A stretch of DNA of 64,000 nucleotides from Fistulifera solaris (Eukaryota): NCBI GenBank assembly GCA_030295235.1, contig AP026129.1:682001-746000 (forward strand), written 5' to 3'. Every line of letters begins with the position of its first letter. Positions within the stretch are counted from its first letter, which is position 1. This document shows, piece after piece, positions 5,866 to 49,143 of this stretch. The notes under the pieces were generated by a model that was not told where the DNA came from, made no database searches, and saw only the letters and a list, made by a program, of their open reading frames with translations. Position numbers and translations under genes: made by a program.

Positions 5866-6995
5866 ATATTTATTCCTAATTTCCTAAAGTCAGAATACAA
5901 ATTTGACATTCGACTGAATTTTCCATTGTTCTTTTTCATTTTCTTTGGTTTCTGGTCCTCAGAAGCTCCGATTTTTGTATCCCACTGTACCACGATTAGT
6001 AATGAAGTGACAAACCTGAACCAGATTCCCAGTGCGGTGGATTGCGCTGTTGCGCGCCATCTCTCGGATTTCGCAATAGCATGCTTTTTACCGATCGATG
6101 AAATACCACTGGGCCAGAATTTCTGGAGCATCAAAGGTTTTCCTTATAAGTAAAATGCACCTGGTCAAGATTTTCTGGAGCATCAAATATTTTCTGTATG
6201 ATTGAAATACATCTGGTCCAGATTTTCTGGACCGCCCCAAATTTTGTATGAATAAAAACATTTGGTCCAGATTTTCTGGACCGTCCCCAGATTTTCTGTA
6301 TGATTGAAATACATCTGGTCCAGATTTTCCGGACCGTCCCTAGATTTTCTGTATGAATGGAATACACCTGGTCCAGATTTTCTGGGCCGCCCCAAATTTT
6401 TGTATGAATGGAATACAGCTGGTCCAGAATTTCTGGACCGCCCCAAATTTTGTATGAATAAAAACATTTGGTCCAGATTTTCTGGACCGTCCCCAGATTA
6501 TCTGTATGAATGGAATACAGCTGGTCCAGAATTTCTGGACCGCCCCAGATTTTCCGTATGAATGGAATACACCTGGTCCAGATTTTCTGGACCGTCCCCA
6601 GATTTTCTGTATGAATGGAATACACCTGGTCCAGATTTTCTGGACCATACCCAGATTTTCTGTATGTGTGAAATACACCTGAATTTCTGGAGCATCAAAG
6701 ATTTTCCTTATGAGTAAAATACACCTGGTCCAGAATTTCTGGTTCTATTCAGATATTTTTTCGTTATGAGTTATGAATGGAATATCCAGGTCCAGATTTT
6801 CTGGACCGCCCCAAATTTTGTATGAATAAAAAACATTTGGTCCAGATTTTCTGGACAGTTTCCGATTTTCTGTATGAATGAAATACACAGGGTCACGAAT
6901 AAAAAATACCAGTACCATTTATATTTATTCCTATTTTCCTAAAGACAGAATTTAATTTGACAATCGACTGAATTTTCCATTTTTCGTTTCATTTT
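5866..6995. repeat. Imperfect ~75-bp direct repeat (5866-5942 and 6921-6995) bracketing the minisatellite
   Basis: atatttattcctaatttcctaaagtcagaatacaaatttgacattcgactgaattttccatt versus atatttattcctattttcctaaagacagaatttaatttgacaatcgactgaattttccatt. Confidence 0.85.
6108..6890. repeat. Minisatellite of about 14 units of 49-53 bp, each with a palindromic core GGTCCAGA-ttt-TCTGGACC
   Basis: The GGTCC core recurs at 6215, 6264, 6317, 6370, 6421, 6470, 6523, 6575, 6628, 6727, 6789 and 6839. Degenerate copies lie at 6111 and 6163, and a partial one near 7020-7055. Confidence 0.95.
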
Positions 6996-7922
6996 GTCAT
7001 GGTCAAGGATTCCTTTACAGTCCCCGGATTTTCTGTATGAGTAAAATACAAATGGTAAAGAATTTTTGTTTTCGTTCTGCGTTCTGGCACTGGGCACTGG
7101 AAACTGCCACCTGCTACCACATCATCATCTTTCTGTTTTCGGCGTTTCGGAGTCACATTCTACAACAAGTATGTATAGTTAAACATTAGTGCGGAGGTTT
7201 TCTACTCTTGAAACCAGAAACGATTTCCGACACTCTCTTAGATCACAGATCACAATGTGTGAGGTATTTAGCAACGAAAAGGACGTTGAAGAAGGAAGAA
7301 GTCGTAGGAAAGGAGTACTGTATAGCCATATGCCATATCCGTCTTTGGTAGTAGGTCAGAGTACGATACACGGTATAATATCATCCTGTCAAGACGGAAA
7401 TCAGTTCTCCATTTGTTCTTTAGTTTCCAAAACCCAATACTTACAATTTTTTTCTTCTCAACAAGCTACAAGTACTAGATACTGACTACCACTTTGTACT
7501 GATTGTACTATACATAATTAATCAAAGACATTCGATTACAATTGTGCTTTGTACTTACGCGACTTAAGCCTATGACCAATTAGTGGAACGCCTCAGGAAT
7601 TTTCGACAGTAGTTAAGGACACGTCAGCACGTCAGTTGTTTTTACTGTAGTCTGTGCCGTTTTGAGTCACAAACTCTTGGACAAGTGCCCTTTTCCGCTT
7701 TTCGGGCTTCATCTTCGGGCTTGGGTTTGTGCTGCTCCTTCTTTCCTTTCTCCTTGGCATCCTCTACTTGACTCGCCTCGGATGTAGATTGATCAAGACG
7801 AGTAACGGTTCCGGACCAACAAAGGAGCGAAATCAATTGCCTTCAAACTTTTGTTTCTCGATTCTTCAGTGATTGTACAAGTCAATCCCTGAAAGGAGAC
7901 CGAAAAACAAAAGATATTCTAG

Positions 7923-10640
7923 ATGTCTTCACCTTCCAATTTAAAACAGAGTATGCGCCGCAGCGCCGCACCTCAACATGCCGAAAGTGACAGTCAATGT
8001 ATGTCGCGGACACTGTTTCTGCGTTTGGTCTTTGTTGCCAGTCTAGTCACAGCAGCGGCAGTTTGTGGCTTTGTGGCGTTCCGTGTTATAAGAAATTTAG
8101 AGCAAGAGGTCGGAGAGCAGACTTATGAAAGTGTAGCAAACAGTGCACTCACCACAACTCAAGAAATATCACTGCGAAAAATTCAGGGAGGAGACATTAT
8201 GGCAACGATATTAAGCTATGCATTCCCAAATAAAGAGGCGTGGCCTTTTGTGGCATTAGATGGATACGAAGTCATTGCCGGAAAAATAGCGAACATGTCC
8301 GCATCATCGTCACAGATCGTAGCCGCTGTTGTGCTGCCAGAGCAGCGGGCCGACTTTGAAACGTTCGCGCAAAATTTATACAGATCAAACGGCTACCCAG
8401 AGACATCTGGATTTAGTGATTTTGGATTCGGGGCCTGGGCCACAGATAATGAAACAAGTCCCTACGACGATGGGCGTGTACATGATGTTAACGGAACAGT
8501 ATCCCCACAAAGTGATCGAGGCATTTTAATTATTCTTTACCAACACAACTTGGTGACTGCTAACAGCATCATGGCAAATCTGCATTCAATACCCGTCCAG
8601 GGAAACGCTCTGGTCCGTATTCTCGACTGTGTCGATAAGTATGCGACGGAAGAGACACCCGCGCCGTCGTGCGGGTTTATTACAGACTTCACCGAACTCA
8701 TTCGACGACCCGGACCTGCGTGCATGATATTCAAGCCCATCTACCCTCAAAATGACCAAACCTCCGCGGTTGCGTTTGCAGGAACCACCATGTACCTAGA
8801 CGAGGTCTTGGTCAATGTTGTTCCGGACTATGTTAGAGGCCTGTACGTTGTCTTCTCCACCGATACAGAGTCGCATACGTTTATGATGGATGCGGGGGTC
8901 CCGATACTTTTAGGAGAGGGTGACTTGCATGACCCTAGTTTTGACGAATATGCCCGTTCGGCTGTTTTATATTCCGTCGAAACAAAGGCAGAAGGCAGTG
9001 CAACGTATACAATTACGTTGTATCCCAGTGATACGCTATTCGCCACGTTTGAAACAAACAGTCCGATGGTAGTATCACTTGGGTTAGTTATGGTGATCTG
9101 CTTCAGCATCAGCATGTTCTTCTTATACGACTACTTCATGAAATACGAGTCACAGCAACGAAAGACACTCTTGGAAATGAAACGCCGCTTTGTGAGATTT
9201 GTATCTCATGAAATCCGCACCCCGCTCAACACAGTGGGAATGGGACTTGCTTTATTACAATCTGAGATGATGTCAGGTGTGCTTGAGACACTTCGCAGCA
9301 ACTCTCTGATAGATTGTGCTGAAAGTTCTGGCGAGATCAAGAGGAGCTCGAGTTCGCCTGAAATGGCTCTGACTTTCCTGGGGAATAACACTGGGGCTTC
9401 AGAAACGGACTCGAAAGACGCGACTATAAGTAGGCCTTATTATAGCAAGGAACACGTGGACTTGTGTGTAAAAAACTGGCTGTCGTTGACGAAAGAAATT
9501 TATGAAAACTCAGAAGCGGCTGTTGCTGTTTTAACGGATTTATTGGATTTCGACAAGATTCAAACCGGGACGCTGAAGTTGGATGTCAGTAGGGTTCAGA
9601 TATGGGAACTGGTCCACAGAACATCTAATCAATTTCAAATCCATGCAAACAACAAGCACGTTACTTTGGAACTTTTGTTCCCACAAGTTTCCCTCGACAC
9701 GATGGACCAAGGACGCGTCGTCAAGGAATTTGAGCACTTGCTAGTAATAGGCGATGACATGAAGCTAAGTCAGTGTCTACGAAATCTCATCTCGAACGCA
9801 CTAAAGTTCACTCCAGAAAGCGGAATAGTGATAGTTGAAACGTCATATATGCCAAACGGCTTGCCAAATGTACTGTCCACAGAGTATTGCTTCAAGGGCG
9901 ATGTTTTCCGTCGTTCTGGCTCTGTTCGGATTTCTGTCAAAGATACTGGACCTGGTATGTCTGCAGAACAGCAGGAGCAGTTGTTTCAGGAATTCGTGCA
10001 ATTCGATCCCAACAAGCTACAAGCAGGCGGTGGCAGTGGATTGGGTCTTTGTATTGCGAAGGAAATCATTGAGCAGCATAAAGGTTGTATTCTTGCAACA
10101 TCAGAAGGACTGGGCAAGGGATCGAATTTTATCATTGAACTTCCTTTGTATAGCTTCCCGATGTACAGGGAAGACTCCTCATGCCGACAGTCGAATCAGA
10201 CCTCTATATCAGAAGAAATCTCAGATTTGATTGCGAATTATCACCATCACATTCTTGTTGTTGATGATGTCTTATCGAATCGAAAATTCTTGGCAAAATT
10301 GTTGGAGCGAGCGGGACATACAGTGCAACTTGCGAAAAATGGACAAGAAGCTATCGACGCTGTTAAAGCCGATCTCGAAAAGTTGCAATCGGAGCGACAC
10401 GTCCCCTTCGATACTATTCTCCTCGACTCCGAAATGCCAGTTCTCTGTGGGCCGGAGGCTGCGAAGAGTATTAGAGAACTCCGGCACCCGGCAACAATTT
10501 TGGGATGCACGGGCAACGTTCTTCCCGAAGATGTGGATTACTTCAAGTCTTGCGGTGCAGCCACCGTGCTACCAAAACCGATCAAAGTTTCAATGCTGGA
10601 GAGTTTTTGGCGAGAACAAGGCATCGCATCCACAATATGA
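7923..10640 (+). CDS. Membrane hybrid histidine kinase (TM, CHASE-like sensor, TM, HisKA, HATPase_c, receiver)
   Basis: H-box FVSHEIRTPLN, N-box LRNLISNALKFT, G1 VKDTGPG, G2 GGSGLGL, receiver LVVDD...ILLDSEMP...LPKP. Two TM helices flank the sensor region. Confidence 0.93.
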   Translation: MSSPSNLKQSMRRSAAPQHAESDSQCMSRTLFLRLVFVASLVTAAAVCGFVAFRVIRNLEQEVGEQTYESVANSALTTTQEISLRKIQGGDIMATILSYAFPNKEAWPFVALDGYEVIAGKIANMSASSSQIVAAVVLPEQRADFETFAQNLYRSNGYPETSGFSDFGFGAWATDNETSPYDDGRVHDVNGTVSPQSDRGILIILYQHNLVTANSIMANLHSIPVQGNALVRILDCVDKYATEETPAPSCGFITDFTELIRRPGPACMIFKPIYPQNDQTSAVAFAGTTMYLDEVLVNVVPDYVRGLYVVFSTDTESHTFMMDAGVPILLGEGDLHDPSFDEYARSAVLYSVETKAEGSATYTITLYPSDTLFATFETNSPMVVSLGLVMVICFSISMFFLYDYFMKYESQQRKTLLEMKRRFVRFVSHEIRTPLNTVGMGLALLQSEMMSGVLETLRSNSLIDCAESSGEIKRSSSSPEMALTFLGNNTGASETDSKDATISRPYYSKEHVDLCVKNWLSLTKEIYENSEAAVAVLTDLLDFDKIQTGTLKLDVSRVQIWELVHRTSNQFQIHANNKHVTLELLFPQVSLDTMDQGRVVKEFEHLLVIGDDMKLSQCLRNLISNALKFTPESGIVIVETSYMPNGLPNVLSTEYCFKGDVFRRSGSVRISVKDTGPGMSAEQQEQLFQEFVQFDPNKLQAGGGSGLGLCIAKEIIEQHKGCILATSEGLGKGSNFIIELPLYSFPMYREDSSCRQSNQTSISEEISDLIANYHHHILVVDDVLSNRKFLAKLLERAGHTVQLAKNGQEAIDAVKADLEKLQSERHVPFDTILLDSEMPVLCGPEAAKSIRELRHPATILGCTGNVLPEDVDYFKSCGAATVLPKPIKVSMLESFWREQGIASTI

Positions 10641-11984: not shown

Positions 11985-13010
11985 TTTCGTGGCCCACCAA
12001 ACAGGTGGCGTGTTTTAGCTGCGGCTGTTGTCAACTGTATCAAATTAAGGCCGTTGTAACCCAGATTCCTTACCGCTCTCTCTGGAAATCGAACAATCAT
12101 ACAAGTAAGAACGATGTACGACTGGTATTTAATAAAATGATCAAGTGAAGTTGGAATAATGAAGATAAGCATGTCTTTTTCAACAGCGTCACCCGTCACT
12201 CTTCATGAGGGAGATTCAAAGTGGAACGCCGGTCTGCATCGAGGTGTTCTGTGTTCTGCTTTCGTTCTGAGAATCTTCCGTGTCACATCGTTACAACTAC
12301 GTCACCGAACACGAACACCGAACACCGAATAGCAACAAAACTGGCTGGCCGTCGTCACAAAGGAGCGCTCTCATTTTGAAATGTGTTTTCTCCACACCAA
12401 TTTGATTATATTACCATGTGATACATTTGCGATGCGCAATTAGATCGTTGAGCTATCATTTCCGCTGGATCTAGAGGTCACAGATCCTACCTAAACGCCT
12501 CGGGTACACATTTAGCCATATCAAATTTATACTGTACTGTTTACTGTAGTATCGACAAAGGAGGTAAGAAAAATAATCGAAGCGCTGCGTTTTGTTCTTG
12601 TTGTTGTTGATGGTAAAACAATCAAAAGAACCCTTTAACAGCGTAATGGGGTTTTAGTTGCTTTCACCGCCCTCATCGCTGTTTTGGCTAGTTTTCTAGC
12701 TGAGGCGGTTTGTATACTGAAACGAAAGTTTCACGTTTGTTTTGCTGTAACAATCTTCGTCTCTTGCACTCCGAGGAAATTGTGATCTGTCTGATGCGCC
12801 AATCTGTGCCAAGCAGCGGGGAAAACTGCTCGTTACTGTTAGCTTTGAATTTGTTTGCAATAAGAGTGTAAAAGGCCTTCGCCAAGATGCATATTAGATG
12901 ATGCTACGAGAAGTCGCCGATGAAGTCCCCATTTGTCTTGCGGCGTGTCGCTAAATTGGTCCTGCAAGTTGGAACGATTGTTGGGGCTGACAAATGATAT
13001 GAGAAAGAAA

Positions 13011-13031
13011 GAGAGAGAGAGAGAGAGAGAG
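13011..13031. repeat. (GA)n microsatellite inside the transposon
   Basis: About 10 GA units. Confidence 0.9.
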
Positions 13032-13586
13032 CTGTTGGCCATGGTTCGAAGATTAATAACCAAAAGGTGTGTTCGCAATATTCTTTTCATGTTTCATCTC
13101 AGCACCTCTCAGAGACAAGGCCGACCAATGTCCATGAAGTAGACACCATTCAACGCAAATCATGTGTGTTCTTCATTTTTTGACTTAAAAAATACGGCCC
13201 TATGTAGTTAAAAGCTCTCATTAGAGTTTCTCTTCTTGACTTCTGACCTGCTCTTACCACAACGTATCATTTCTAGAGTCAATGATCTTTTTAACTGACA
13301 GACCAATAATGAGCATTATTCCCTTAAATAGTAACTAGTATTCTGAAACTAAAGATCGCTTGCGGTGTATACCTTGCAATCGTTAGTTGGTCTTATTTAT
13401 TGAGACATGCCGGGACTGGAATTTCTGGTCGTTTGGAACGCATCGTCTATTGGAACGCGCAGATGCACATTCTCGCATTTACAACTACTCCGTATTACTA
13501 CTATTTTATCTCGCATTATCATCGACCACAAAAAGGCGCGATCGATCCTCCAATTTAAATCATTATGCAGTCTACTATGAGTGTCA

Positions 13587-16500
13587 TTACGCTTCTTTGA
13601 AATTAAACTCGACACCTTCCCCGCGAATCACAAAGCTCGTTGGATCGAATTCGCTCATATCGGCATCCTCGTTCTCAATGCGCCACAATCGTTTCTCGTC
13701 TTCCATTAAAAAGGCTTTCCACTCTTTCCATTTAACATCTTTTGCTGCTCGATTATCAGGGACAACAATGTTTTGAGCTTGAATTTCTCTCATGAATTGC
13801 GCGAAGTGCAAATTCTTTCTGAGGTCGTTCACCGGAATTCGCCCCGCAGCTCTACCTGGTAAGTCCACTCCTCTCTTTCTCGATCGTGAGTTTGCTTTGA
13901 GTGGATCATCTTTAACCTGTAGCAACCCCTCAACAGCCGCATTTGTTCGCAATGCTTGCAGCCCATTTTGCTTTGACAGTAAGCGCGTTTCGATCATTGA
14001 TCGAGCAGCGCTGTATTCTTCTGCCCCCAAGCGCAAAGAGATCGCTGCCAGTTGTGTTTGCTTTATACTGGCCATATCGGCAATGTACTTGATTGCATCT
14101 TTCTCCCGAAGCCGTATTCTTTTACCAGAATCTCGTCCGCCATCGCTATCGCTCTCCTCTGTTTCATCGTCCTCTCTGCTGCTGCCCATAATGAAATCGT
14201 TGGATGCGATAGCCATTATATTTGCGCCTGTCTCTGTCTTTCCTGTTTTTTTGATGTTAGCGGTGGCTTTTACAAGTCGTTCTTGATTTTGCGCTGAACT
14301 TGGTTCCGCGGCGAAATGACTTAACACAAATGCTCTGTGCGGGTTTGCTAGAGTATTGCTTCGGTCCCAGATATCGTTTCCATTGGCAATAAATTCAAGA
14401 ATAGCCACACACTGAGTCACCAAAGGGTCTGCTCGAGTTGCCGCTATTGAATCCTTGGAGTGCTCGCGGAGCCACTTATTGAAATTATGTGTGTTGATTG
14501 ATCTTCCTATCATTACCGATTCATATTGAGGAGAATTCAGTTGACAATCAACCTCATGGCCCAACAGAAGTAACGATACTATTCTCCCTGTTTCATGTTC
14601 TCCGAAAGCTGCACGAAGAAGCCGCAATGAATTTACGTAGCGCTGATTGTGTTTAATCACCTGGACTATTGCTATTTTGAAAAATCGCTCTGGGAGCTCT
14701 TCTTTGGTCGCGTTCTCTTTGGTAGTAAGGCCGTTCAAAATTGAAACAAAGTCAGCAAAGTTTGGATGTGTTCGCCATGATCCTTGTAGTTCCTCGAGCA
14801 ACTTGATGTCAGAAAAGTATCTTACAACGCGATGAAACGTAAGAAATCCAGGTTCTCCAATATTTGGATCAAGCTTCCCGTTCCACTTCATAGCCGGATT
14901 TACAAATGATTTAGCAAAGGCTGCAATAAAGGCCACATCAGCATGCAGCATTGATTCGCTCATCAAAGAAAGCAATCCGCTTGCAATCCTATTGGATCTT
15001 GTGTCGCTTTTGTTTTTGTTCATGACCATTGTACAGATGACCAACACTATTTGATAATAAAGAAGAAGCCACGCCGCTAGTTTCCCAAAAGTCCACCAAC
15101 GGGTGATCAGGGGCTCTTGAATGTTGGCAATAAGTCCTTTGGGAACCTCTACATTTGGATAAGAGATCTTCCAACATTCAGCCGCAAGCATGCGCCACGA
15201 ACCAGGTGAGTTTGCCTCAATGTCTTTGTACATATCAAAGACGGCGTGGATTAAATGTGCCGCATTTCGATTATCTATCCCACCATCACCGATAAGTTGC
15301 TTACAGGGAAGGCGCAAAACAGATTGGACATCGTGATTGCCACAAGAATTTCCTCCATTCTGATGGCGTGCCTGGTCAATTCGGTTAAGTTCGTATAGCA
15401 TGTTAAAGAGCGACTCTGGTGTTCCGCCACCTGAATCACATGTCAGATCACATAGACGAAGTGTCGGTAAGTTGAAGGTGTTTGTAAGCGTAAAGTCAAT
15501 TCCGTGGGCAATCTCACTGGCCTTCTTGCCACTTTTTGCGAGACCAGCAAAAATTCGTACAATTGAACCCTCTGATGTTTGTGTTGTATTGCTCGCATCC
15601 CAAAGATTGAATGCTTGCACAGAAGACCCATCGGGGGCCCCATCTTCCTGGACCTATACTTCATCTGCTTTTTCCATACGATCTGCAGCAATTATGGTCT
15701 GATCGACTGCAAGCTCTTTTATGTAGTCCGTTATAGTTGAGGCCGCAGGAGAGCAATTTGCTATCTTTCCGATTGAATATACTTCGCCGTGGATTTTAGT
15801 ATTCAGTCCTAACTCAGCAAAAAATGTCCACCTAGCAATTGCGATGAGACGTGACGTGGACTCTACGGAAACGGTGGGGTGGGCGGCGGCAAACGCAGCG
15901 ATTAGCGTACGTGATTGTTTTGTTGACACGCACGACTTCATTTTTAGTTTTGCTCGAATTGCATTCATGAAGAGCTTTTCCTTTTGAGCTTCTTTAGGCT
16001 GCTCTTGTCAACAACACAGTAATTGTTTGGCACATCTCTCACAACATGGCCGCATTTAACTTTCCAATCGGACAAACCCATCCCTGACTTGATTTTTTCT
16101 TTCTGAAGTGGGCTTCTTTCATCAGCGATGTAGTGGACCTTTTTAGAGAGTAAGAGTCTCGTCTGAAATCAAGGCTGTTGTGTATCATGATGGGTGGACC
16201 CGCGAAGTGCTCTGATGGACTCTTCATTGTAAGCCATTTTCCAGGCGATGCGCATCTTATCAAGAGCTTGCTGTCGTGGATCTGTAGCAACAATTGCCTC
16301 TTTTGTTTCTTGTTGTTGAGCTTCAATTGTTTTCTTTTCATCTTCTGTTATTTTTGTATTTACTTTTTTGACTCTTTCATTGGCTACGGCTTGCATCCCC
16401 ACTTCAGGAGAAGGAGGAATTTTACGACAGAAGCTGAGTGACTCGTCATAGCGATCCTGCCATTGTTCTACTGTAATGTCTGTGCTGAGTAAAGCCTTCT

Positions 16501-16699
16501 TGATGTGCATAGTGCCACTGTGTATTAAATAGAAGTTGCACAAAGTCGGGCGCTGACAGCCTTCCCGAGTAATGGAACCGGATTGCGTTTTAATGGAGAG
16601 TGTATGCAGATCGGCGCCATTGGTTCCTTCAGCAAATTCTCTCAGCACTCGCGCAACCGTTTTTTGGGGGGAATGGAGTAGCTGTAAAGCAGCCAACAA
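13587..16699 (-). pseudogene. Disrupted DDE transposase (hAT/hATm-like)
   Basis: Candidate D1 in EV*VQEDG (in-frame TAG at 15654-15656 joins ORFs 15654..15968 and 13587..15620). Also D2 in LTCDSGGG, a CxxH motif CGNH, TRWW, and candidate E in PSSAQNQERLVK. Further frameshifted fragments extend to about 16700. Confidence 0.75.
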
Positions 16700-17970
16700 G
16701 AATCGTCCAAGCTTCTGGTGGCATCCACCTCCCGTGAAAACGTGGGTCGGCTAAGATTTTCTTTAGAAGCTCACGTGCATCTTGTATTGTCATTTTTGTA
16801 GCCAAAACGACACGAGTTAAAAGATGCTTAAAAGATGTTGTAACTTGTGTTTAATTTTATGTGTTTATTAAATGGTCTTTTAATTGGAGCTAAAATGATG
16901 ATGATCGAAGCAGTTTCGTGGAAACCTTTCACTTTTTGAGCATGGCTTTCGTGGTTTTGTGGGAGAAAAGTTTTTCGACAGGTTTTGAGGTGATTCGTGA
17001 ATAAAAGCAGTCATGAGCAGAGGCGTTTGTAGGGGTTTTGTGTACTCTAGGATCGTTGGTCGTGGATCTTGACTATACACCGAAAGTGTTGGCGACTTTT
17101 CGACAAGACTCAAGTTAGCCTCAAGCTCAGTCCTGAGTATGAACTAATGGTTCGCTAGTTTATTTGTCAAATTATCGAAACGCTCTCATTTTGAAATGTG
17201 TTTCTCCACACCAATTCGATTATATTACCATGTGATACATTTGCGATGCGCAATTTGATCGTTGAGCTATCATTTCCGCTGGATCGTTGGTCGTGGATCT
17301 TGACTATACACCGAAAGTGTTGGCGACTTTTCGACAAGACTCAAGTTAGACCCAAGCTCAGTCCTGAGTATCGTCACTCGAAACTCGAAACCCGAGACTG
17401 ACTCACTCCTCGATCCTCGACAAGAAAATATGCCCACACTGTAGGGTTTTTTGTGGGGAAGTGCGTGTCTCCGTGTATACCGAAAGTCCAAGCACTATAA
17501 AGCTACTGTGAAACGAATACGGTAAGTTGAACCTAATCTTTCAATCTGTCCGAATGCGTTCTACGACTACGATGTGCAGCAATGCGGCTTCATTGAAGTT
17601 TCCAGTTTCCTGTTTCCTGGGTTGTATGTGGGGAGACTTGTAATGCAACTTGCACTAATTTTTGTCGTACAACCTCATAAGGGCCTTCTACACGACAGAC
17701 TATAGTGATTACTGGTTATTAAGACCCTTGTCCGAAGTGTTTCGTTACAGTAAGATACTATTTCTTCTAACTTCTAATTTAAAATTATAAACTGTACAGC
17801 GAAGTCGAACAACCAAGCAAACAAAGAACTAACCAACTCATTCTCTTCCGTCTTTCGTCATCCTTCAACGTCCACGTTCACGCGCTTGCCGCAGAACGAT
17901 CAGGAAGCCCGAACCGCAAAAGCATTCATTATTATTGCAACGAACAAACTTCAAAGCGACGATTGTTAAG

Positions 17971-19575: not shown

Positions 19576-20915
19576 ATGGGTTTCGTTTCGATCGCTGAAG
19601 CTCCCGATCCTAGTATCTTTGAGGGGAAGTGCACGATCTCTGAAGAGGAAGCGCTCTATGCGGAAATCAGCGCCATCAAAGATGAACACTTCGTACTCGA
19701 TGCCAAGGTAGCAAGAAAGGTTGTCAAAGAGGCCGAGAAAAGCTTGGAGGGTAGATTGCCTCCTCGCGACAAGTCGAAAATCAAAGTTCCTTCGTTGTCG
19801 CCACAAGATCTGGATGTTGGTGCTATCTTGGCACTTGGAGGATTCGGCCTCATCAAATCCGTGAAACCGAAGAAGTCGCTCGGCACCGACAAAAAGCTCG
19901 TTTTGAAGACTATCAAGCCACAACCAAAATGGGAAACATTGATTTCGGGCGCCAATCATCTTATGCGCGAAAAATACTTCTTGTCGCAGTTGGATCATGA
20001 AAACATCATCGCGCTTCGCGCCTACTCTTCGGGAGGAAGTCTACGAGCTATCGATGATACCAAACGACTTGATAGTTGCTTTCTCATTCTTGACTACCTC
20101 CCAGAGACGCTTTCTGACCGTATAACAGTGTGGCGCAAAGATAACAAGCCAGAAGCAAACTCTTCGGGGGTAAAGGTTTCTTCTTCAAAACCGAAAAAAT
20201 GTCCACAAACAACAAGCTGCTGGCCATACAACTCCAAATCGCGATGGATATTGCTGCAGCTTTGACCTACTTGCACGAAAACCGAATTATCTACCGTGAC
20301 TTGAAGCCTAGTAAGTACGATCGTACTGTTGTCCTTCCTAACTGAAATTGTCCAGTGTTTCTCGTGATTATCGATCGCTAACACATTGCTCTGTTTCCGG
20401 ATCTTAGCTAACGTCGGGTTTGACCAAGATGGTGTTTTGAAGTTGTTTGATTTCGGTTTGGCGACTCAGCTAGCCAAAGATAGCGACTTGGATTCTACGC
20501 ATGATCACCTTTCGGGCAAAGTAGGCACAACAAGGGTACGAACCGCTGAAAAGTCCTAATGTTTTCTTTCTCGTCCAAAGATGACGCCTCTAACTATAGT
20601 TCTGTTGTTCTTTATCCCTCTTCACTTTAGTACATGGCTCCCGAAGTTCTTCGCAAGGAACCCTACAATGTCAAAGCGGATGTCTTTTCGTTTTCTTTGG
20701 TCCTATGGGAGCTTCTGGCAATGGAGAAGCCTCATGAGAAAATGCCTGGAGCTGCGGTATATGGCGATAGACCTAAGCTTCCTCGATCTTGGCCGGAAGC
20801 TTTGAAGCGGATCATTGAAAGAGGATGGACGGAAAGCCTGAAGGATCGTCCTCATATTATGGAGTTCAAGTTCGTTCTGAGAGATTTGAAAAGACAAGCT
20901 GACTCGTCGAGTTAA
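19576..20915 (+). CDS. Protein kinase (TKL-like), 2 introns, frameshift near 20195
   Basis: LALGGFG, VLK, YRDLKP|TNVG (intron 20311-20407), DFGLA, GTTR|YMAPE (intron 20536-20630), KADVFSF. The frameshift sits in the A-run at 20195-20200. Confidence 0.88.
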
Positions 20916-21677: not shown

Positions 21678-23139
21678 ATGGGGTTTGTTACGGTCAAGCA
21701 TACGCCAGACCCAACCAAGTTTGAAAAGCAACAGCAGACTTTCTTGCACTCGACGACCAGCCGAACGGTAGATACATCGTACCCATCGATCGGCAACAGC
21801 TCACGAGATGTGAATAAAAATAACCGCCTAGGATCATCAGAATATCTGCTGCAACACAGCCATAATAGTCGACAATCATCACAACAGAGTAGGCAGGAAG
21901 GACAACAATTGCAAAACAGCCAGTCACAAGGGACCTCAAAAGCCCTCTATGAAAGCCAATACATAGATCAAGCAGATCTTACACTAGACGACCAACAAAT
22001 TACTGAAATCGGTGAAATCATTGCTAAAAAAGACGCCGCGATATGAATTCATTTCTTCGACAAAATCTCGTTCAACTTTACAATTGTCACTCGACGACCT
22101 AATAACAGGGCGTGTAATCGGTATAGGAGGGTTCGGAATGGTTCGTAAAGTCAAATCTCCCATTCTCAAAGAAAAAACATTACGCCCTTGTGTTATAAAA
22201 ACTTGTAAGCCATCGTTGGGCCCAAGCATTGTATCGAGTGTAACGCATTTGATGCGAGAGCGCTACTATCTCAGTCATCTAAAACACCCACACATTGTAC
22301 GGATGGTGGCGGCTTCCGAGCACAAAGATCCCATAGAAGCCATTCTACAATCGAAGCGTATCGACGCATGTTTCTTGATACTGGAATATCTTCCTGAAAC
22401 ACTACAGGATCGGATACAATCATGGAAAAAGAGACGACTAGAGTTAGCCAAAAGAGACAAGACAGTGTCATGGAACTTAATACGTGGCCCGCACAACAAT
22501 CGGAATGACACCGCGTTCTCCTTGTTGTCGCAGGCCGACAAAGACTTGTTTGCTCAACAACTCATTGTGGCCTTAGAAGTGGCCAGCGCATTGGAATACT
22601 TGCATTCGCAACGCGTTATTTTTAGGGATTTGAAGCCGTCCAACGTGGGACTCGATTTGAAAGGCAGCGTCAAGATTTATGATTTTGGATTGGCAACGCA
22701 GCTGGCCAACAAGGTAGATTTAGACACCACACACTCATTACCTGGTCGAGTGGGGACGACACGGGTACGTACGAAAAGAATCAGAGCCACAATTACGTTT
22801 TTTTGTTCCTCCATCGACTGTGTAATTTTGCATGCCTTGTACTCATTTCTATTTCTTCAGTACATGGCTCCGGAAGTACTGCGGAATGAACCTTATAATG
22901 TTAAAGCAGATGTCTTTTCCTTTAGTCTTCTCCTTTGGGAAATGATCGCTTTGGAACGTCCGCACGAAAACATGCCGGGCGCGGCTGTTTACGGTGATCG
23001 ACCAAGCATCCCTAAATCATGGCCGGGACAATTTCGTTGTGTACTGAAGCGCGGCTGGTCGGAAAATCTTTCGGAACGACCGCACATACGTGACATGACC
23101 AAAGTGCTGTTGGATTTGTTGCAACAGATGCAGCCGTGA
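21678..23139 (+). CDS. Protein kinase (TKL-like), tandem paralog, 1 intron, frameshift near 22030
   Basis: MGFVT..PDP start resembles the paralog. IGIGGFG, VIK, FRDLKPSNVG, DFGLA, GTTR|YMAPE (96-nt stop-free intron 22765-22860), KADVFSF. Confidence 0.88.
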
Positions 23140-28084: not shown

Positions 28085-28645
28085 ATGACTGAAGTTGGCT
28101 TTGCTGATATGATGAAAGTGCTGGAAAGCTGGCAAGCCGTCCGACAAAGAGAAGACTTCGAAGAGCAACTTGGTATTGAAACTCTGATGCTCATGTTCGA
28201 CCTCGACCCGAAGGTTCAAGAAGTATTTGGCTTTGCTCCGCATAAGAAAATAACCGGGTTGCAACGTATGGGGCTCTTGATTCACGGAAGTCAAGTTGTA
28301 CAAGTTTTCGATGCCATCTTCTCCGCCTTGGGACCTGACATCGACGAAGTACTCCTGCCCATTCTCGAAGATCTGGGAGACGAGCACCTGATATTGCGTC
28401 TATCTCCTGAACAGTTTCAATCTTTGAGCAAGGCGTTGGTGCAGATTCTTCCCGGAAAACTAGACGGTTGGTCACCGGCCCTCGAGTCGGCGTGGACAAA
28501 TGTAATGAATGCTGTCACAAGTCAGCTTGCGGAATGTGTACGTAATCGTGCTCCATTAAAAACACCAAAGCCCGTGACATCCACACACAGCAGTAATGTT
28601 GTTGTAAAGAGTTTGTCGTTTGCGACGGCTGATCGGCGGTTGTAA
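28085..28645 (+). CDS. Single-domain globin (3/3 fold, neuroglobin-like)
   Basis: A-helix ESW, CD1 Phe (EVFGF), distal E7 His (LIHG), proximal F8 His (LGDEH), H-helix ESAW. Confidence 0.88.
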   Translation: MTEVGFADMMKVLESWQAVRQREDFEEQLGIETLMLMFDLDPKVQEVFGFAPHKKITGLQRMGLLIHGSQVVQVFDAIFSALGPDIDEVLLPILEDLGDEHLILRLSPEQFQSLSKALVQILPGKLDGWSPALESAWTNVMNAVTSQLAECVRNRAPLKTPKPVTSTHSSNVVVKSLSFATADRRL

Positions 28646-29413: not shown

Positions 29414-29980
29414 TTATGCAGCGCGGGTCAGAGAGTACGAAGAAGCCACGCCAGTTCTTGACAAAGTCGAAAGGCTATTGCTGGGAGCGGTTTTCTCCAT
29501 TCGCTTAAGCATGCTCTTGACAATCTCAGCATTCACACATTCGATGACCTGTGACCAGGCGGCCCGAACATCCTTAGTCCATTCAGTGTCCATGATCGTC
29601 TCCAACACCCCCATCACAGCACCACACAAGAGGGTGAAATGATCGGGTGTTAAGCCATGCTTGCAGTGCTGTTCTCCCATTTCGGTGACGACGTCGTAGA
29701 ACAGTTCTTCGTCGGGCCCCAGGGCTGAGAGGATCACATCAAACATTTTGACAACTTGAAGACCATAAATGAGAACACCCATTCGCTGCATGCCTTGAGC
29801 TTTGACTTCCTTTTCAACGGCGAAGCCGTAAATTGGTTTAACCTGCGGATCCATTTTGAAGAGGGCAAGGAGAGTGTCGATATCGAGCTGTTCATCGAAA
29901 CCGTTTCTTTGTCTTGCGGTTTCCCACCTGTTGATAACTTTCATGACACAAGCAGGACTTGCTACTTCGATAGATGTCAT
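29414..29980 (-). CDS. Single-domain globin, paralog with Tyr at E7 and CD1
   Basis: NRW, PIYGF, LIYG, MGEQH (F8), WTKDVRAAW; aligns colinearly with the neighbouring globin. Confidence 0.88.
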   Translation of the reverse strand: MTSIEVASPACVMKVINRWETARQRNGFDEQLDIDTLLALFKMDPQVKPIYGFAVEKEVKAQGMQRMGVLIYGLQVVKMFDVILSALGPDEELFYDVVTEMGEQHCKHGLTPDHFTLLCGAVMGVLETIMDTEWTKDVRAAWSQVIECVNAEIVKSMLKRMEKTAPSNSLSTLSRTGVASSYSLTRAA

Positions 29981-39488: not shown

Positions 39489-39897
39489 GATTGATATTAC
39501 AAATAATAATTGCGTACGATCGCTTTGCTTTGTTGCGTAATGTCGCTGTATCATCGTTGTTGTCGTCGTCGCGGCGGCTGCTTGAAGCGAAGGACGAACG
39601 AATGCAACGTGACTCCTTTTCAATCACGATAATAATAATGTCCTTCTTCCTTCGTGTCTCACTGTCTCACATTAAAACACTGCGTTGGATAGTATCATCC
39701 ACCGCCAATTTCGGCCAATGAACTGTCATGACATGCTACTGTTTTATATGACCCTTTTGTTATCGGTTTCCAAAGGAAGCCCAACCTTGAAATGATAGGC
39801 TTCGGGCGACATGTGCCAATTTCTCGGTCACAATCATCTCCCCTTTTGTTTATTCATTCAATAAAAGAAAAATCATTCTTCGTGAAAGAGAACCACC

Positions 39898-41169
39898 ATG
39901 GCACTGCAACTCTCAGGAAACAATAGACAAGCCATGCTCCAGATCCTTTTGATACTTGCTTTCTGGTGCGCGTCCTCGGCGACAGCGCACAGCGAACGCG
40001 ACTTGAGTTGGGGCTCACACAATGGAATGTTTTATTCGCTCATTTCCGCCACCAATTACGTCGAGTCGACTGGAGAAGTCGAAACAATTACAACATCAGA
40101 TGGTATTCGAGCGGTAGGCTTTCTGGATCCTGGTGATACGATGGGTTATGCGTTGGATGTTCCTATCGCCGGTATGTATTCTTTACTTCTTCACGTTGCC
40201 AGTCCGGCTGGCGAAGGCTCCTTGACTATAGAGAATGCCGAAACAGCGGAAGTCTATGCTACTTTTGACGAATTGCCATCTTCGAGTGGAAATTGGTCGT
40301 ACTATCAAACTACAGGCGAAAATATCACATTACCTCAAGGTCAGCTCGTCTTGCAAGTGAGTGTCCTTGAATCTGGTTTCAACTTAATGTGGCTCAGTCT
40401 CGAACAGCTTGCGGAGGAACCTTTCGTACCGGCCGAGTCCGCTGCACCTGTAGCACCAGTAGCTCCGGTTCCTTCTGAACCGGTTGCCCCAGTTCCGACG
40501 GAGCCAGTTGCTCCAGTTCCGACGGTGCCTGTCACACCTTCTCCCTCACAAACACAGACGACGGCCCCGACTATGGCACAAACACTAGCTCCGACTGTAA
40601 AACAAACTCCAACAACAACCCCCGCCCCTACCATGAAACAAACTCAGGCGCCGACGACTGCTCCAACGATGAAGCAGACTCCAGCTTTGACGGCTGCTCC
40701 GACGGCGTTGACGCTAACTGAAACGAACCCTCCTATTGTTTCGGAACTATCTTTGTACACGGAGCAATGTTTTTCGGCTGGAAACTTCTTGTCGTACCAG
40801 GGATGCGACGAATTGCCACGGGGTGTTGGTTTTGTGGGACCCTTTGTTACTTCAACAATGATTACGTATCCCTTCCAAGTGCCTATCGCAGGAGTATATC
40901 TGCTTCAAATGAGTGTGCAGGGAATGGGAGGAGTGAAGGTGACTTGTGAATCAACTGGAAAGCAATACGCGTACATCGAGTCTCTTCCAATGTATCGTAC
41001 CACGAATACAACTGACGTCTGGTATACCGCGTCCAGCGTCATGTCTTTAGATGTGGGAAGTCACAAGTTGCAAGTCGAAGCTGTAGTAGGAGGATGGAGT
41101 ATCCAAAGCTTGTGCTTGCTTCCTGTAGCATCGCATTTCGTGAGTTGCTCGGTCGATGCAGCACGCTAG
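39898..41169 (+). CDS. Secreted protein with two CBM6-like modules and a Pro/Thr repeat linker (cluster gene C)
   Basis: Signal peptide, then RDL. VGFLDPGDTMGY..PIAGMYSLLLHVASPAGEGS...GNW...GFNLMWL. PVAPVP and TAPTMKQT repeats, then a second module ending GGWSIQSLCL. Confidence 0.85.
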   Translation: MALQLSGNNRQAMLQILLILAFWCASSATAHSERDLSWGSHNGMFYSLISATNYVESTGEVETITTSDGIRAVGFLDPGDTMGYALDVPIAGMYSLLLHVASPAGEGSLTIENAETAEVYATFDELPSSSGNWSYYQTTGENITLPQGQLVLQVSVLESGFNLMWLSLEQLAEEPFVPAESAAPVAPVAPVPSEPVAPVPTEPVAPVPTVPVTPSPSQTQTTAPTMAQTLAPTVKQTPTTTPAPTMKQTQAPTTAPTMKQTPALTAAPTALTLTETNPPIVSELSLYTEQCFSAGNFLSYQGCDELPRGVGFVGPFVTSTMITYPFQVPIAGVYLLQMSVQGMGGVKVTCESTGKQYAYIESLPMYRTTNTTDVWYTASSVMSLDVGSHKLQVEAVVGGWSIQSLCLLPVASHFVSCSVDAAR

Positions 41170-41554
41170 ACGCAAGCTAGAGATACGTGATACGTCACAA
41201 GTCACAAGGAGGTCACAAGAATTTGACCCTCTCGATTCTTTACTGTTAATGATCCTAAATACGGAGTAACTTGTAACTTCTTCTTCTCAAAAGTCATTTA
41301 CTATTTACTGTAGTCATGACGTCATGACTTCAAATCATGATGTACCATGTACCTTTCATCCTTCCTAAAAGCAGTACTGTACTGAGTTCGAGAATTCGAC
41401 GTAATTTTTCCGTCCTCGAAGAATACGAAAACTTAATGCCATAATCATCCACGATCGGCACGCACTCTTTCAATCCACAATCTTTCTTCCACTCATTTGA
41501 TTGTCTATTTTTCCACTCAATTCGAAACTTCTATTTCAAAAATCGATCTAAAGA

Positions 41555-43511
41555 ATGAGGCTTCTAACAACGAGGATAGTGCTGTCGCTCTTTTGCTATG
41601 GAAAAGGGTGATGGCTGTCGAGTGGCATCCACCTTCTCAACAAAGACATGGGCAACTGCGAGGCAGAGAAGAGCGTAAGCTCAGATGGGGACTCCATGAT
41701 GGTCTCTTTTACAATGTCATCTTAGCTGCGAATCACATTTCTGTGCAAGGAGATGTCTCCATTCAAGAATCGTCCTTGGATGAACTTCCGTATGTGGCAT
41801 ACCTTGACGCTGGCGATGTACTCACATGCAGAGCTGTTTTGCAATCAATCGGGAAATATCGGCTGGAACTCCGAATTGTAAGTCCTTCTGGAGAGGGTGG
41901 CACACAACTGCGCAATTTTCAAAACGATACGCAAGTATACCCTTCCCTTGATACAAAGTATGTTGCCCGCCTCAGGCGATTGGAATTCGTGGCAAACAGT
42001 GGAGGCGACATTCAAACTGCTAAGCCTCAAGTTCAATCTCGACTTCGTCGTTGTTGAGGCAGGTCGCAACTTGCTTTGCTTATCCCTTGAACTGCTCGAA
42101 GAAACCGATAGTACCGCAAAGCTAGCAGAGCCTCCTGTCACTGCCCCTACTATTGAGCCACCTCCTACAACCTCTCACATGAATGACACCCGCATAGTGT
42201 CTTTGGGCGCTGGTGAATACACCATTGTCGATGAAGGAGCGCAACTGTCACTCGAAAACATCGCGTTGAAGCTGGATACCAGCTCGTGGGCTGTTTGTAG
42301 TGTTCAAGTTCCAGTAGATGAAAAAGTATCTAAGGCAAATGAGAATGACTCTCACTTCGCCCACGGGATGCAGAAACCAAAGATTTTTACGCAAAAGAAT
42401 CAACAATTGATTCTTGGCGCAATACCAATGCTGCTCTTGTTTTGGAAGCAGGGATGCATGATGTGAAGATCCATATTGTGAAGGATCGTGGACACTATCT
42501 TCTGTATGCCTTGACGGAATCGATTGCGTGAATGTGCACTATCTTGAGTCCATAAACATCAACACTACAGCTCCAACGAATCCAAAGGAAACCGTCCCAA
42601 CTGCGGCACCGATGGTAACAACTGATGAGTCGTCGACAGCCAACATGGCACTAACAAGGCCGGCGACATCAACACCGACTAAAACATCTCCGTAGTCCAA
42701 AAATATGGAAACCATGGCACCAACGACTCCGACAGAAGCTGCGACATCAACACCAGTTGTAATATATTCGGAGTCTAGCAATACAGACACGACGACTTCA
42801 ACGAGCCCAACCGAAGCTGCAACACCAGTCGTAACATCTGCTGAGTCGGACAATACAGGCACCATGTCCCCAACGAGCCCAATCGAAGACCCGCCAACAA
42901 TAGCACCAGCCGTGGTGACCATGAAATCAAGCATTACCAGCACTATGACCCCAACCAGTTCGTTACAACCTTTTTACATCAGCACGACCCCTCGAAGCGC
43001 CAACAAAAGCAACAAACAGTTCGCAGACGGAGGCATCCGTCGCTTCGTCGAATAACATGGCCTCCTTAAAGTCCCAGGAAATCGTCCTGCAGTTTTTAGC
43101 CGACGAAGCATCTTCCATGTACGGAGCTGTTGTAGAAGAGACCAGGTAACGAGAATACAACCTGCATAAGACAGCTCGATGCGTACGATTGGGTCCGCTA
43201 TCCCATGTCGACACTCGTCGGAGGCAATTACACAATGAAAAATCGTGTGTCCACCGCTTCAGGAACCGGCGCCTTCGATTTAATCGATTATGGCACGAGA
43301 ATTACTTTACACTTCGATGGAATGTTTTCCAGCCACAGGGGACGGCAATGGGGAAACCGTCAGTAACCGTGTCACTTTGCCGGAAGACGACGTCCGCTTA
43401 ATGATTCGTGTACGAGAATCCGGGTGGATCTATTCGTGGTTTCGGTTTAGCGAGACTTTTGATTTAGCCCCCGATTTTGAAACCATCTCACATGCAAGCT
43501 TTGTGACCTGA
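41555..43511 (+). pseudogene. Degenerate three-module CBM6-like gene (cluster gene D)
   Basis: Signal start at ATG 41555, RKL motif, VAYLDAGD...SPSGEGG...SGDWNSWQT. It has several frameshifts plus substitution stops (for example TAG at 42693-42695). The last module ends VTLPEDDVRLMIRVRESGWIYSW. Confidence 0.75.
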
Positions 43512-44140
43512 TAAGGGGCGCACATCATTCGACACTCTATTGGAGTTAATGCATGCTTTGAATCGTTGTGCCGGAGTGTTCGATATGGCTTTTGCCACAA
43601 TTCCTTCGTGTCCGCCTTAATGATTATTTCTTCATTATTTGTTGATACCAGGTAGGCGATTGACAATAAAATAAAAGAGAGTTGCGATGGAACGCTTCGC
43701 GTCAAAAACGATCGACATGGATTCGTGACTGAAAGTTAGCCCGATCTCAAATATTGCCTTCCACTTCCGAGAACACTTGGGACTACAAAGTAGACGGCAT
43801 GAGGCATGATTTGCGAGAAAATCCGAAGTACGTAGTACCGGTAATCCCCTACAAAACGGAAACCAGAATTACACGTATAATTTTTTCCGGAGTAATTAGT
43901 AATTGATACTTTGAATCGTAATGGTCCTGTCTTTGGCGTAAACGTACTGTGATAAGTGAGAGGACCTTCATACTTTCTACAAGGTATTCACATTTCACCA
44001 GTCGACTTTGGGCCTAAAATTATTCTACCCCGCAGTACGGTTATGCGAAACGCCTCCATCCTCCATCACCGACATCTCGACATTTCAATCTTCACTTTTC
44101 ACCGCACATATTTCCGAAAAGCCACAAAGGAACACCAATC

Positions 44141-46126
44141 ATGAATAGCAAGAAAAATATGCAAGCGGTCGCATGCCTTTTGCTGTTGGCTGCACTAATA
44201 CCATCATCTCAGGGCTCGACGCTATTTCTACGGCGGCGTTTACAAGAGAGCGCTTGCCAGTTTGGCTGCCTCGAACCGCGGATCGCGTCGATCGCCGGAA
44301 GTGCTTTTGTCGAGCAAAATGGAGGCATCGTAAATGAAATCGAGCATCTTATCACACTGCAAACCAGCGACTGGGTTGTTTACAATGTTACAGTTCCCTC
44401 CGACGGTTTTTACTTGCTGCAAACGCAGCTTTCGTTCGGCAACGGGTCGTCCTTGATCATGGACGATCCTCAATCATCCAAGCAATACGCCACGATTACT
44501 GGAAATCCCACTCATGCCAACAGTATCGTGTCCTTACGATCAGGTATCCAGCAAATAAGACTATATGCGGAACAGGGCCCGATACAAGTGAAATCTCTTC
44601 TTGTCGACATTATCGATTCCATGGACGAACAAGCGAATAACGTTCCTCCGTCAGACCAGGAGCCTGAGATGAATGTTGGCAGTACCGATACCGTGTTGGA
44701 ACTAGTAGAAGTCGCCTCGGATGAGCCATTGTTATTAGAAACGAGTGAAGATGTTGACGGCGACACAAGTGAGCCAGAAAGTTACGATTCTTCCTACGAA
44801 CCCAACAGTGAGATAGAGTCATCACCGGTCATTGAAAATGGAGGCAACTCAAGCGATCCAACAAGTGCATCCAATTTCTCATCTACTCCTGTTTCCTCCC
44901 AACAGCTGAAACAGCCTGCTATTGTTATGATGACTGCGTCCAGCTATTCATCGATGAACGGTGTTGAACTTGATAACGCGACTCACCATGGTCTTCCTTC
45001 CACAAAGCTACTTGATGCAAATGATTCAATATTGTATTCTGTGACTATACCGAAAGCTGGCATTTATGAAATGAAAATGAGCGTTAATAGTCTCGCTGGA
45101 GAAGGTTCTTTTGATTTTGTAGATGAAGTTACGGGAACTTTGTACACCTCTGTCACTGGTTTACCGACTGCAGTTAACGCAACTAGTTGGGACACTGTAT
45201 CAGCGGAAATTAATCTAGCGAGCGGGCCGCAACAATTGAGAATTAATGTAACCGAAGGTGGGTGGTCCTATACGTGGATAAGACTGACAGAAAGATTGGA
45301 TCAGAATAGCACGGGCACTACTGATCAACCAGCAGATCAGACACAGTCCAATACCACGATAGACCTGGCTCAACAGCCTCCACCGCCAGATGATCCATCA
45401 CAAACGGTAACGCCAGCAGATCCAGCGCAAGCGGCATCACCAGCTGACTCAGCACAAGCGGCAACACCAGCTGACCCAGCACAAGCGGCAACACCAGCAA
45501 ATCCAGCGCAAGCAGCAAGCCCAGCTGACCCGGCACAAGCGGCAAGCCCAGCAAATCCAGCGCAAGCAGCAAGCCCAGCTGACCCAGCACAAGCGGCAAG
45601 CCCAGCTGACCCGGCACAACCGGCAAGCCCAGCGGATCCAGCACCAGTAGCAATTCAAGGGGATAGTGGCAAGCCTGCGACTCCTTCTAACCTTTCTCAA
45701 AGTTCAACTGATTTGCAGTCCGCGTCACCTGAACCAGATCCACTTTTAGCAAGCTGTGACGCTGTTATAGAGGCCGCAAAATATACCACAATGTCAGGTA
45801 TCCAAGTACAAGGGTCAACTGAAAGCATGGACAACATTGGATGGTTGGATCCTGGAGATTGGGTCGAATATTCTGTCTCCATTCCGTCAGCGGGCAGCTA
45901 TACCATGGACTTCCGTGTCGCATCGCCTGAAGGCTGGGGAAGTTTTGATGTGCTCAACGGTAGCGCAGCACTGACATCAATCCCAACTCTGCCAAAATCA
46001 AGCGGATGGCAAGACTGGAAGACCGCATCTCGCAAAGTTTCACTGTCATCGGGTCCTACCAATCTTCGTATCAATATCTTGACTGGAGGTTTCAATTTAG
46101 TCTGGATATGCTTGACTCGCGCGTAA
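44141..46126 (+). CDS. Secreted protein with three CBM6-like modules and PADPAQAAS repeats (cluster gene E)
   Basis: Signal peptide, then RRRL. The C-terminal module NIGWLDPGDWVEYSVSIPSAGSYTMDFRVAS...SGWQDWKT...GGFNLVW is a near-consensus CBM6. Confidence 0.88.
   Translation: MNSKKNMQAVACLLLLAALIPSSQGSTLFLRRRLQESACQFGCLEPRIASIAGSAFVEQNGGIVNEIEHLITLQTSDWVVYNVTVPSDGFYLLQTQLSFGNGSSLIMDDPQSSKQYATITGNPTHANSIVSLRSGIQQIRLYAEQGPIQVKSLLVDIIDSMDEQANNVPPSDQEPEMNVGSTDTVLELVEVASDEPLLLETSEDVDGDTSEPESYDSSYEPNSEIESSPVIENGGNSSDPTSASNFSSTPVSSQQLKQPAIVMMTASSYSSMNGVELDNATHHGLPSTKLLDANDSILYSVTIPKAGIYEMKMSVNSLAGEGSFDFVDEVTGTLYTSVTGLPTAVNATSWDTVSAEINLASGPQQLRINVTEGGWSYTWIRLTERLDQNSTGTTDQPADQTQSNTTIDLAQQPPPPDDPSQTVTPADPAQAASPADSAQAATPADPAQAATPANPAQAASPADPAQAASPANPAQAASPADPAQAASPADPAQPASPADPAPVAIQGDSGKPATPSNLSQSSTDLQSASPEPDPLLASCDAVIEAAKYTTMSGIQVQGSTESMDNIGWLDPGDWVEYSVSIPSAGSYTMDFRVASPEGWGSFDVLNGSAALTSIPTLPKSSGWQDWKTASRKVSLSSGPTNLRINILTGGFNLVWICLTRA
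45412..45645 (+). repeat. Coding 27-bp tandem repeat (about 9 copies of PA[DN]PAQAA[ST])
   Basis: ccagctgacccagcacaagcggcaagc-like units repeated in frame. Confidence 0.9.
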
Positions 46127-46254
46127 CATAAGCCAAGCAGATTAATTATTGCGTTGAATCTTCATGTATTTATAACTTGACGGGTGACTTGCGCTCGACT
46201 TTTTCCGTGAAAAAGTGCGTAGCGATTTCTTCCGCTCACACACTGTAACATGTT

Positions 46255-48731: not shown

Positions 48732-49143
48732 TGTTTCTGGTCTTTAATGTGCCCGTCTCGTGTTCACTTTTGTTTTGCGAACAAAAAGTATCGCTGAAAA
48801 GTTGCCTCCAATAGGCTTCCGTTTGGGAAAGAATTTGGTGATGCATGACTGCTTCCTACTGTCACGTCGGAAGAGACATAGGGCGTGATTGACAAAAATT
48901 GTGACCATCGTTCCGTTGCATCCGCCACAGTCCTCTGCAAGGTGTGGGAAAAAGTGTACAATCACGTAGACCCCCGTAGAGAAATGTACCAAGCAGAGGT
49001 GCGTTCCCGTGTCTCCCTGTAAAAAGTCCTGTGTCCCAGTGACGAGTACTCTCTCAAAACCGATCGGCAAACCACAACGTCGACGACTTCTCTTCTCACT
49101 TTTCTCGCGTGGCTTTTCTTGTCACCCTCTAGTGTCAACAAAG

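Follow-up and report, generated by a model that had tools for sequence, protein, structure and literature searches.

The Locus and Its Transposon

The window analyzed here is a 64,000-nucleotide stretch of the Fistulifera solaris genome (contig AP026129.1, positions 682,001 to 746,000), and it carries a 4,578-bp DNA transposon at 12472..17049, bounded by TAGAG and CTCTA. A GGATC target-site duplication lies on the left at 12467..12471 and, directly after the terminal CTCTA, on the right at 17050..17054; the element and both duplications are unstranded features, and the extent of the element is based on comparison with a second genomic copy. Inside it, a transposase gene runs on the minus strand (13587..16793), from an ATG at 16791-16793 to a stop at 13587-13589 in the window copy. 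The element is a real, recently mobile cut-and-paste transposon. We think it probable that it is an autonomous-type member of a so far undescribed lineage, related to hAT but deeply divergent, with a 5-bp duplication of its own; elements of this type are ~4.0–4.6 kb long, with short imperfect terminal inverted repeats (TIRs) and a transposase frame of 1,029–1,177 codons in three examples.

The TIR on the gene's 3′ side (12472..12501, plus strand) runs from TAGAG to AAACGCCTC and is the same in the second copy; its partner lies on the gene's 5′ side (17020..17049, minus strand). The two match at 21 of 30 positions, with perfect identity over the outer 5 bp and over AAACGCCTC (positions 22–30). 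Although this is the top-scoring of 691 such end pairs within the window, 1 of 20 Markov-resampled windows matched its score (5-bp repeat, 5 perfect terminal bases, 21/30 identity). Taken alone and set against chance, the end structure is marginal evidence.

Genomic Copies and Empty Sites

The genome (G000; 51.7 Mb in 62 contigs) was searched with the whole element, a terminal 20-mer allowing 2 mismatches, a bipartite TIR pattern, and the protein. As a lower bound, these searches returned the window copy on contig C10 and one other on contig C14, and no further copies or derivatives of the miniature inverted-repeat type. The C14 copy (G000:C14:788931-793510) is 99% identical to that of the window, lies in unrelated flanks, and has GACTC at either side.

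Empty sites exist for both insertions. The window element interrupts a unit of the host's ~190-bp repeat, and GGATC is single at seven empty paralogous sites, that is, in seven other units of the repeat; an eighth unit is a variant reading GGATT (four loci examined). Among the seven is the uninterrupted neighboring unit at 17181..17371 (unstranded), whose single GGATC lies at 17281-17285. A counterpart of the C14 insertion site on contig C13, 72% identical, is empty and contains GACTC once. Because the second copy has other flanks and empty sites exist for both copies, the boundaries are settled, and the insert, termini, GGATC duplication, and 21/30 TIR match described in the sequence-only reading are confirmed.

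Contigs of run X1, which is independent of the genome assembly, also carry the element with the C14 flanks. At both element ends they continue into those flanks and no others, a hint that X1 lacks the window insertion; absence cannot be proved from contigs. An explanation by chance arrangement or assembly artifact, with no transposon at all, can draw on the 1-in-20 resampling result but is refuted by the second copy, by the empty sites for both copies, and by the independent X1 contigs with C14 flanks; we give it practically no weight.

The ~190-bp host repeat occupies window positions 12366-12471 plus 17055-17140 and, again, 17181-17371, and contigs C10, C8, and C4 carry it in short tandem arrays (12 matches). 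An Rfam scan of the window locus including this repeat matched no family. Within the element's 3′ noncoding part, an (AG)n run lies at 13005-13030, and a 14-bp piece at 13427 that is present in C14 and X1 is missing from the window copy. Two small runs, X2 and X3, cover only window positions 12659-12996, also in the noncoding part. No RNA run is listed among those with the element, and contigs give no view of its expression.

The Transposase Gene and the State of Its Copies

When the coding differences of X1 are applied to the window copy, except the one at 13600, a single frame of 1,069 codons extends to the window's stop. The deletion at 13600, common to X1 and C14, leads to a longer C terminus; homologs terminate near the window's stop. 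N-terminal pieces of the gene match homologs P0115 and P0007. As assembled, the window copy is divided into minus-strand frames of 688, 117, 193, 102, and 73 codons, and the C14 copy into frames of 873 and 262 codons. The X1 contigs differ from the window by seven substitutions and six insertions or deletions (indels).

Four indels relative to X1 break the frame on the minus strand across 15981..16666 (at 15981, 16139, 16218, and 16666). Those at 16139 and 16218 occur in the window copy only. Those at 15981 and 16666 may be assembly errors, since they lie in homopolymer runs, are shared with C14, and are absent from X1. An in-frame TAG at 15654..15656 (minus strand) is TAT (Tyr) in both C14 and X1, and this stop may not be real. 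Judged from its assembled sequence, the window copy reads as broken, with no full enzyme predicted; the TAG stop and frameshifts that break it had not been raised in the sequence-only reading.

Two related metagenomic elements (L012 and L020, described below) each encode the transposase in one open frame, of 1,029 and 1,177 codons, respectively, from which we infer that the gene is probably intronless. An intron between the two long C14 frames was considered and dropped: an extra base at 15981 in X1 joins them.

The two genomic copies differ by 12 substitutions; X1 has the C14 base at seven of these and the window base at five. X1 and C14 represent the same insertion, yet the window copy is about equally far from X1, and on this measure of distance the window copy is very young.

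Relatives Support a 5-bp Duplication

The two genomic sites leave two readings of the insertion equally fitting: GGATC and GACTC are both of the form G-NNN-C, and a 3-bp duplication with ends one base further out (CTAGAG...CTCTAG) would account for them as well as a 5-bp duplication does. This alternative, too, goes beyond the sequence-only reading. Relatives bear on it. A metagenome contig scan gathered 16 loci. Three are two-ended elements: L020 (4,264 bp, TACCTG...CAGGTA, ACAGT at both sides, 22% protein identity), L012 (3,980 bp, TAAGGC...GCCTTA, CATTT at both sides), and L007 (3,986 bp, TATGG...CCATA, flanks GAGTC/GACTC with one mismatch). In four of the five two-ended elements, an exact direct repeat occurs at a length of 5 bp and at none of the other lengths between 2 and 9; the exception is L007 with its mismatched pair. 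The four families have the ends TAGAG, TATGG, TAAGG, and TACCT, all of which start with TA.

The 3-bp reading can also be fitted to L020 (A-NNN-T), and positions 1 and 5 of the target are complementary in 6 of 11 sites. They are not in the other five, however, and L012, with CATTT on both sides, is the telling case: its extra bases are noncomplementary, and the 3-bp reading lacks perfect ends there. Further, the base adjoining the left terminus varies within the L012 family (T, T, G, G), whereas the 5-bp reading yields the same TA ends across all four families. We therefore read the duplication as 5 bp and regard a true length of 3 bp as very improbable. The 5-bp length proposed earlier holds up across the collected copies and relatives, which show 5 bp, not 8 bp, along with TA termini.

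The 11 target sites, oriented to the gene, favor nAnTn: position 2 is occupied by A at ten of them (binomial 2e-5), and position 4 by T at nine (binomial 3e-4). Six are single ends placed by alignment to two-ended elements, and four related families supplied all 11; the sites are not fully independent, which weakens this part of the case. Seven of the 16 metagenomic loci stand outside the count: L009, L010, L014, L016, L017, L021 (short or incomplete), and L022, whose left end, TACGTG, has only 2 flanking bases. The right flank of L011 is also that of L012, whereas their left flanks differ, and only the left end of L011 was counted.

Three long imperfect palindromes lie in or beside the related element at L007 (457-541, 1098-1168, and 5292-5487).

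A Large Protein Family with a Conserved Motif Set

A phmmer search over 1.84 billion representatives returned 561 proteins at E ≤ 0.001 (representatives at 50% identity), 253 at 1e-10, and 33 at 1e-30. None of the ten matches of a word-indexed search carries a Pfam domain, and all are unnamed or called "hypothetical," as are the members of ten clusters checked. These ten, the C14 frame, and 106 mostly longer phmmer matches were aligned in 117 rows.

The motifs noted earlier in the window—D..D, CxxH, RW, and ERLVK—are present there and conserved across this alignment. Numbered on the 806-residue frame, and all on the minus strand, they comprise the predicted first catalytic Asp, D122 (15642..15644; D in 80 of the 82 rows with a residue there); the predicted second, D191, within DSGGG (15435..15437; 86/91); CxxH, with C222 and H225 (15333..15344; C in 90/95, H in 95/95); RW, R303 and W304 (15096..15101; R in 97/104, W in 99/102); and the predicted catalytic Glu, E576, within QERLVK (14280..14282; E in 65/66). 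Median spacings are 66 residues from the first to the second Asp, 30 from the second Asp to the Cys, 80 from the His to the Arg, and 280 from the Arg to the Glu. Hermes, with D180, D248, R318, W319, and E572, gives 68 between its Asp residues and 254 from Arg to Glu (PMC6027215). Judged by conservation and spacing, a DDE (Asp, Asp, Glu) triad with CxxH and RW thus appears in the hAT order and at similar spacing, and the catalytic roles are predicted from that pattern. A rough propensity scan gives strand (at the first Asp)-strand-strand-helix...helix, with a helix beginning at the Glu.

A quick IQ-TREE tree without outgroup, built from 62 rows (56 of the 117 alignment rows, at ≥75% core coverage, plus six of nine locus frames), places the window, L012, and L020 families on widely separated branches at ~22% identity. 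The family signatures DSGGG, GxGG, and TRWW hold across branches this distant. Because the three families with exact duplications lie so far apart in the tree, the TA ends and the 5-bp duplication are lineage-wide.

Relatives were also sought in viral contigs, where none of 17 pattern matches was confirmed, and in plasmids, where no relative was found. One bacterial genome bin includes a 1,365-bp contig with a transposase relative (L029, 780-1286); this contig is probably carried-over eukaryotic DNA.

How Close Is the Family to hAT?

Several results weigh against placing the family with hAT. No alignment-based link was found. The hAT Pfam families were matched by 0 of 47 homologs (E ≤ 0.05) and 0 of 3 element pieces; the PF05699 dimerization domain is absent among the Pfam matches of the window frames and the 47 homologs; and searches of the PDB by sequence and by profile gave no match. 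A BED finger was not found: the 262-residue upstream C14 frame, which covers the N-terminal part of the protein except its first ~40 residues (encoded in another frame), has no CxxC pair, and neither the window frames nor the 47 homologs gave a zf-BED match. In an hhalign comparison with seven canonical diatom hAT sequences, the probability was 0.06–0.08, like that of reversed and shuffled controls; this set, composed of relatives of the genome's own canonical hAT, is shallow and lacks the first Asp, which makes the test weak. In the propensity scan, the strands expected ahead of the second Asp and of CxxH are weakly called. Of the ends of the four families, TAGAG and TAAGG fit the consensus for hAT termini, (T/C)A(A/G)NG (PMC6027215), whereas TATGG and TACCT fall outside. 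NCBIfam gave no relevant match among 20 proteins, and searching the word-indexed proteins with a profile gave 10 matches, none in named families. A close match to a described family, which would have counted against the sequence-only reading, did not appear in the Pfam, NCBIfam, and PDB sequence searches.

The canonical hAT of the genome (PF05699; L027, G000:C8:758584-761811) reads in three frames. A database protein 98–99% identical to it is continuous; the interruptions are either real decay or assembly indels. A canonical hAT protein of the genome has 98% identity to an NCBI protein labeled Fistulifera solaris, one line of evidence that places the host in this diatom or close to it.

The Atlas of language-model neighbors points toward hAT. 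Unnamed eukaryotic clusters rank first (0.90), followed by hAT-derived Pfam families at 0.82–0.87 with 93–124 shared features; the top named cluster is a hAT-derived RNase family, and eight of the ten best named clusters belong to its family or clan. We treat this likeness as a lead, and its score level counts against hAT membership.

The same evidence bears on whether the family is instead a separate group of superfamily level—of the CxxH-type DDE class, sister to hAT, and of a rank like that of Dada or Kolobok. Lack of PSI-BLAST convergence is the Repbase criterion for splitting superfamilies (PMC4455052), and the missing Pfam, NCBIfam, PDB, and profile links to hAT, the 561 representatives at E ≤ 0.001, and the signatures and 5-bp duplication held across branches ~22% identical all speak for such a rank. 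RW, the motif spacings, and the TA termini are all hAT-like, however; hAT families are the closest Atlas clusters that bear a name; and the negative profile test used the shallow hAT set. We consider this separate rank improbable. The fuller form of the idea, an unrecognized eukaryotic superfamily sister to hAT that is widespread, missed by Pfam, marked by TA...TA ends, a 5-bp stagger, and nAnTn targets, and still moving in a diatom, is speculative and seems to us unlikely. Membership in hAT, as a deeply divergent lineage, is likely.

Proposed Mechanism

In hAT chemistry, catalysis is of the two-metal D/D/E type, hairpins form on the flanking donor DNA with the help of CxxH and W, and the target is captured symmetrically. 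By analogy, and given the motif set, the transposase would have an RNase H core, with metal bound by the triad D122, D191, and E576, and would bear CxxH and RW on a large insertion of helices. It would bind the element ends, with the perfect AAACGCCTC at positions 22–30 as the likely binding site, and excise the element, leaving hairpins on the flanking DNA. Both 3′ ends would then be joined to target strands 5 bases apart, and gap repair would produce the 5-bp duplication; this 5-base stagger is what is new relative to hAT chemistry. Hermes has the target bias nTnnnnAn; the palindromic nAnTn would fit two-fold symmetric target capture as a shortened form of that bias. The window copy itself entered its small host repeat recently.

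Significance

Duplication length is a classification criterion for DNA transposons, and it reflects bending of the target by the transposase. A large hAT-type family fixed at 5 bp, apparently apart from the animal hAT5, would offer a comparison for the enzyme parts that set the stagger. Hundreds of public proteins that are unnamed or called "hypothetical" become readable as transposases, a family that Pfam-based annotation misses. The apparently intact, intronless copy in the diatom run X1 makes the mechanism directly testable. If the family were indeed an unrecognized superfamily still mobile in a cultured diatom, its transposition could be observed as it happens and put to use in tagging.

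Other Features of the Window

To the left of the transposon, a tandem array of 51–53-bp units (CTGGTCCAGATTTTCTGGA core) occupies an AT-richer stretch at 6083-7068, with a further unit-like match at 21483, and a hybrid histidine kinase gene (HisKA, HATPase_c, receiver) forms one 905-codon frame at 7923-10640. A 172-bp direct repeat (20625-20796 and 22855-23026; 72% identity, 2,230 bp apart) overlaps a protein kinase frame and is possibly a tandem gene duplication. An 80-bp inverted repeat lies at 28260-28339 and 29711-29790 (70% complementarity, 1,371 bp apart). A cluster of CBM6/CBM35 carbohydrate-binding genes spans 39886-48743 on both strands, with coding repeats of 27, 39, and 54 bp.

Comparison with Known Transposon Groups

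The window family shares with canonical hAT elements (Hermes, Ac, Buster, Tip) the motif order D, D, CxxH, RW, E, a single transposase gene, and short TIRs. Canonical hATs usually make 8-bp duplications, whereas the window family makes 5-bp ones; also unlike them, its protein is ~1,050 residues long, has no match to a BED finger or dimerization domain, and has no detected sequence or profile similarity to theirs.

Within hAT, the families hAT5, hAT6, and hAT7 duplicate 5, 6, and 7 bp; the first two fall among animal hATs, Blackjack included (PMC12730594). Records of hAT5 come from invertebrates and from fish (PMC9004415), and both papers cite Putnam et al. 2007 for this family. The window family has the same duplication length as hAT5 but occurs in a diatom and matches no hAT Pfam family; compared by description only, it looks unlikely to belong to hAT5. 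A text search of the PMC12730594 supplement returned no mention of hAT5, hAT6, or hATm.

These families bear on the possibility that the same element and mechanism are already cataloged in Repbase or Dfam, for example within hAT5, or among diatom hATs as a family that duplicates 5 bp. That hATs with 5-, 6-, and 7-bp duplications are known (PMC12730594, PMC9004415) and that Repbase entries often have no description in indexed papers both favor it. Set against this, reports of hAT5 concern invertebrates and fish, and its place is in the animal lineage containing Blackjack; ordinary hATs would be expected to match hAT Pfam families, which none of the 47 homologs did; and searches of the open literature yielded no description of such a family. 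We judge prior cataloging improbable. A transposable-element survey of Ectocarpus lists four hAT and 51 unknown DNA families (PMC12477816); a search of its main text turned up no 5-bp family. The sequence-only suggestion of an undescribed diatom lineage of the hAT/CxxH group is thus supported within the literature covered, and a diatom host is shown only for the window family.

A likeness to hATm, also suggested there, stands in part. The first three terminal bases of the window family are TAG, and the glutamate motif here (ERxVK; HTxxVExxVK in relatives) resembles the hATm motif. By contrast, hATm elements have TAGGGTG termini and 8–9-bp duplications, with PF05699 in hATm-6 (PMC6004678), and hATx-6 and hATm-3 have 8-bp duplications (PMC8721813). 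The window family reads TAGAGGT/TAGAGTA at its ends, and its relatives TATGG, TAAGG, and TACCT; it has neither the 8–9-bp duplication nor PF05699. hATm and hATx protein motifs were sought in the text of paper supplements, and none was found there. The window family is not hATm.

The comparison extended to other superfamilies of the C/DxxH type (Kolobok, MuDR, P, and Dada) and to Transib. Kolobok makes TTAA duplications and has RR..YY ends, neither of which the window family has. MuDR/MULE elements make 8–11-bp duplications and mostly have long TIRs; here the duplication is 5 bp and the TIRs are short. Dada makes 6–7-bp duplications, is without TIRs, and targets small RNA genes, whereas the window family has a 5-bp duplication and TIRs starting with TA. 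Dada-like targeting of RNA genes was considered and rejected: an Rfam gene was present at none of five loci scanned. Transib makes a 5-bp duplication. The CMCT group has 2–5-bp duplications, mostly CA..TG ends, and C(2)C and H(3–4)H motifs (PMC12730594); in contrast to Transib and this group, the window family combines TA..TA ends with CxxH and RW.

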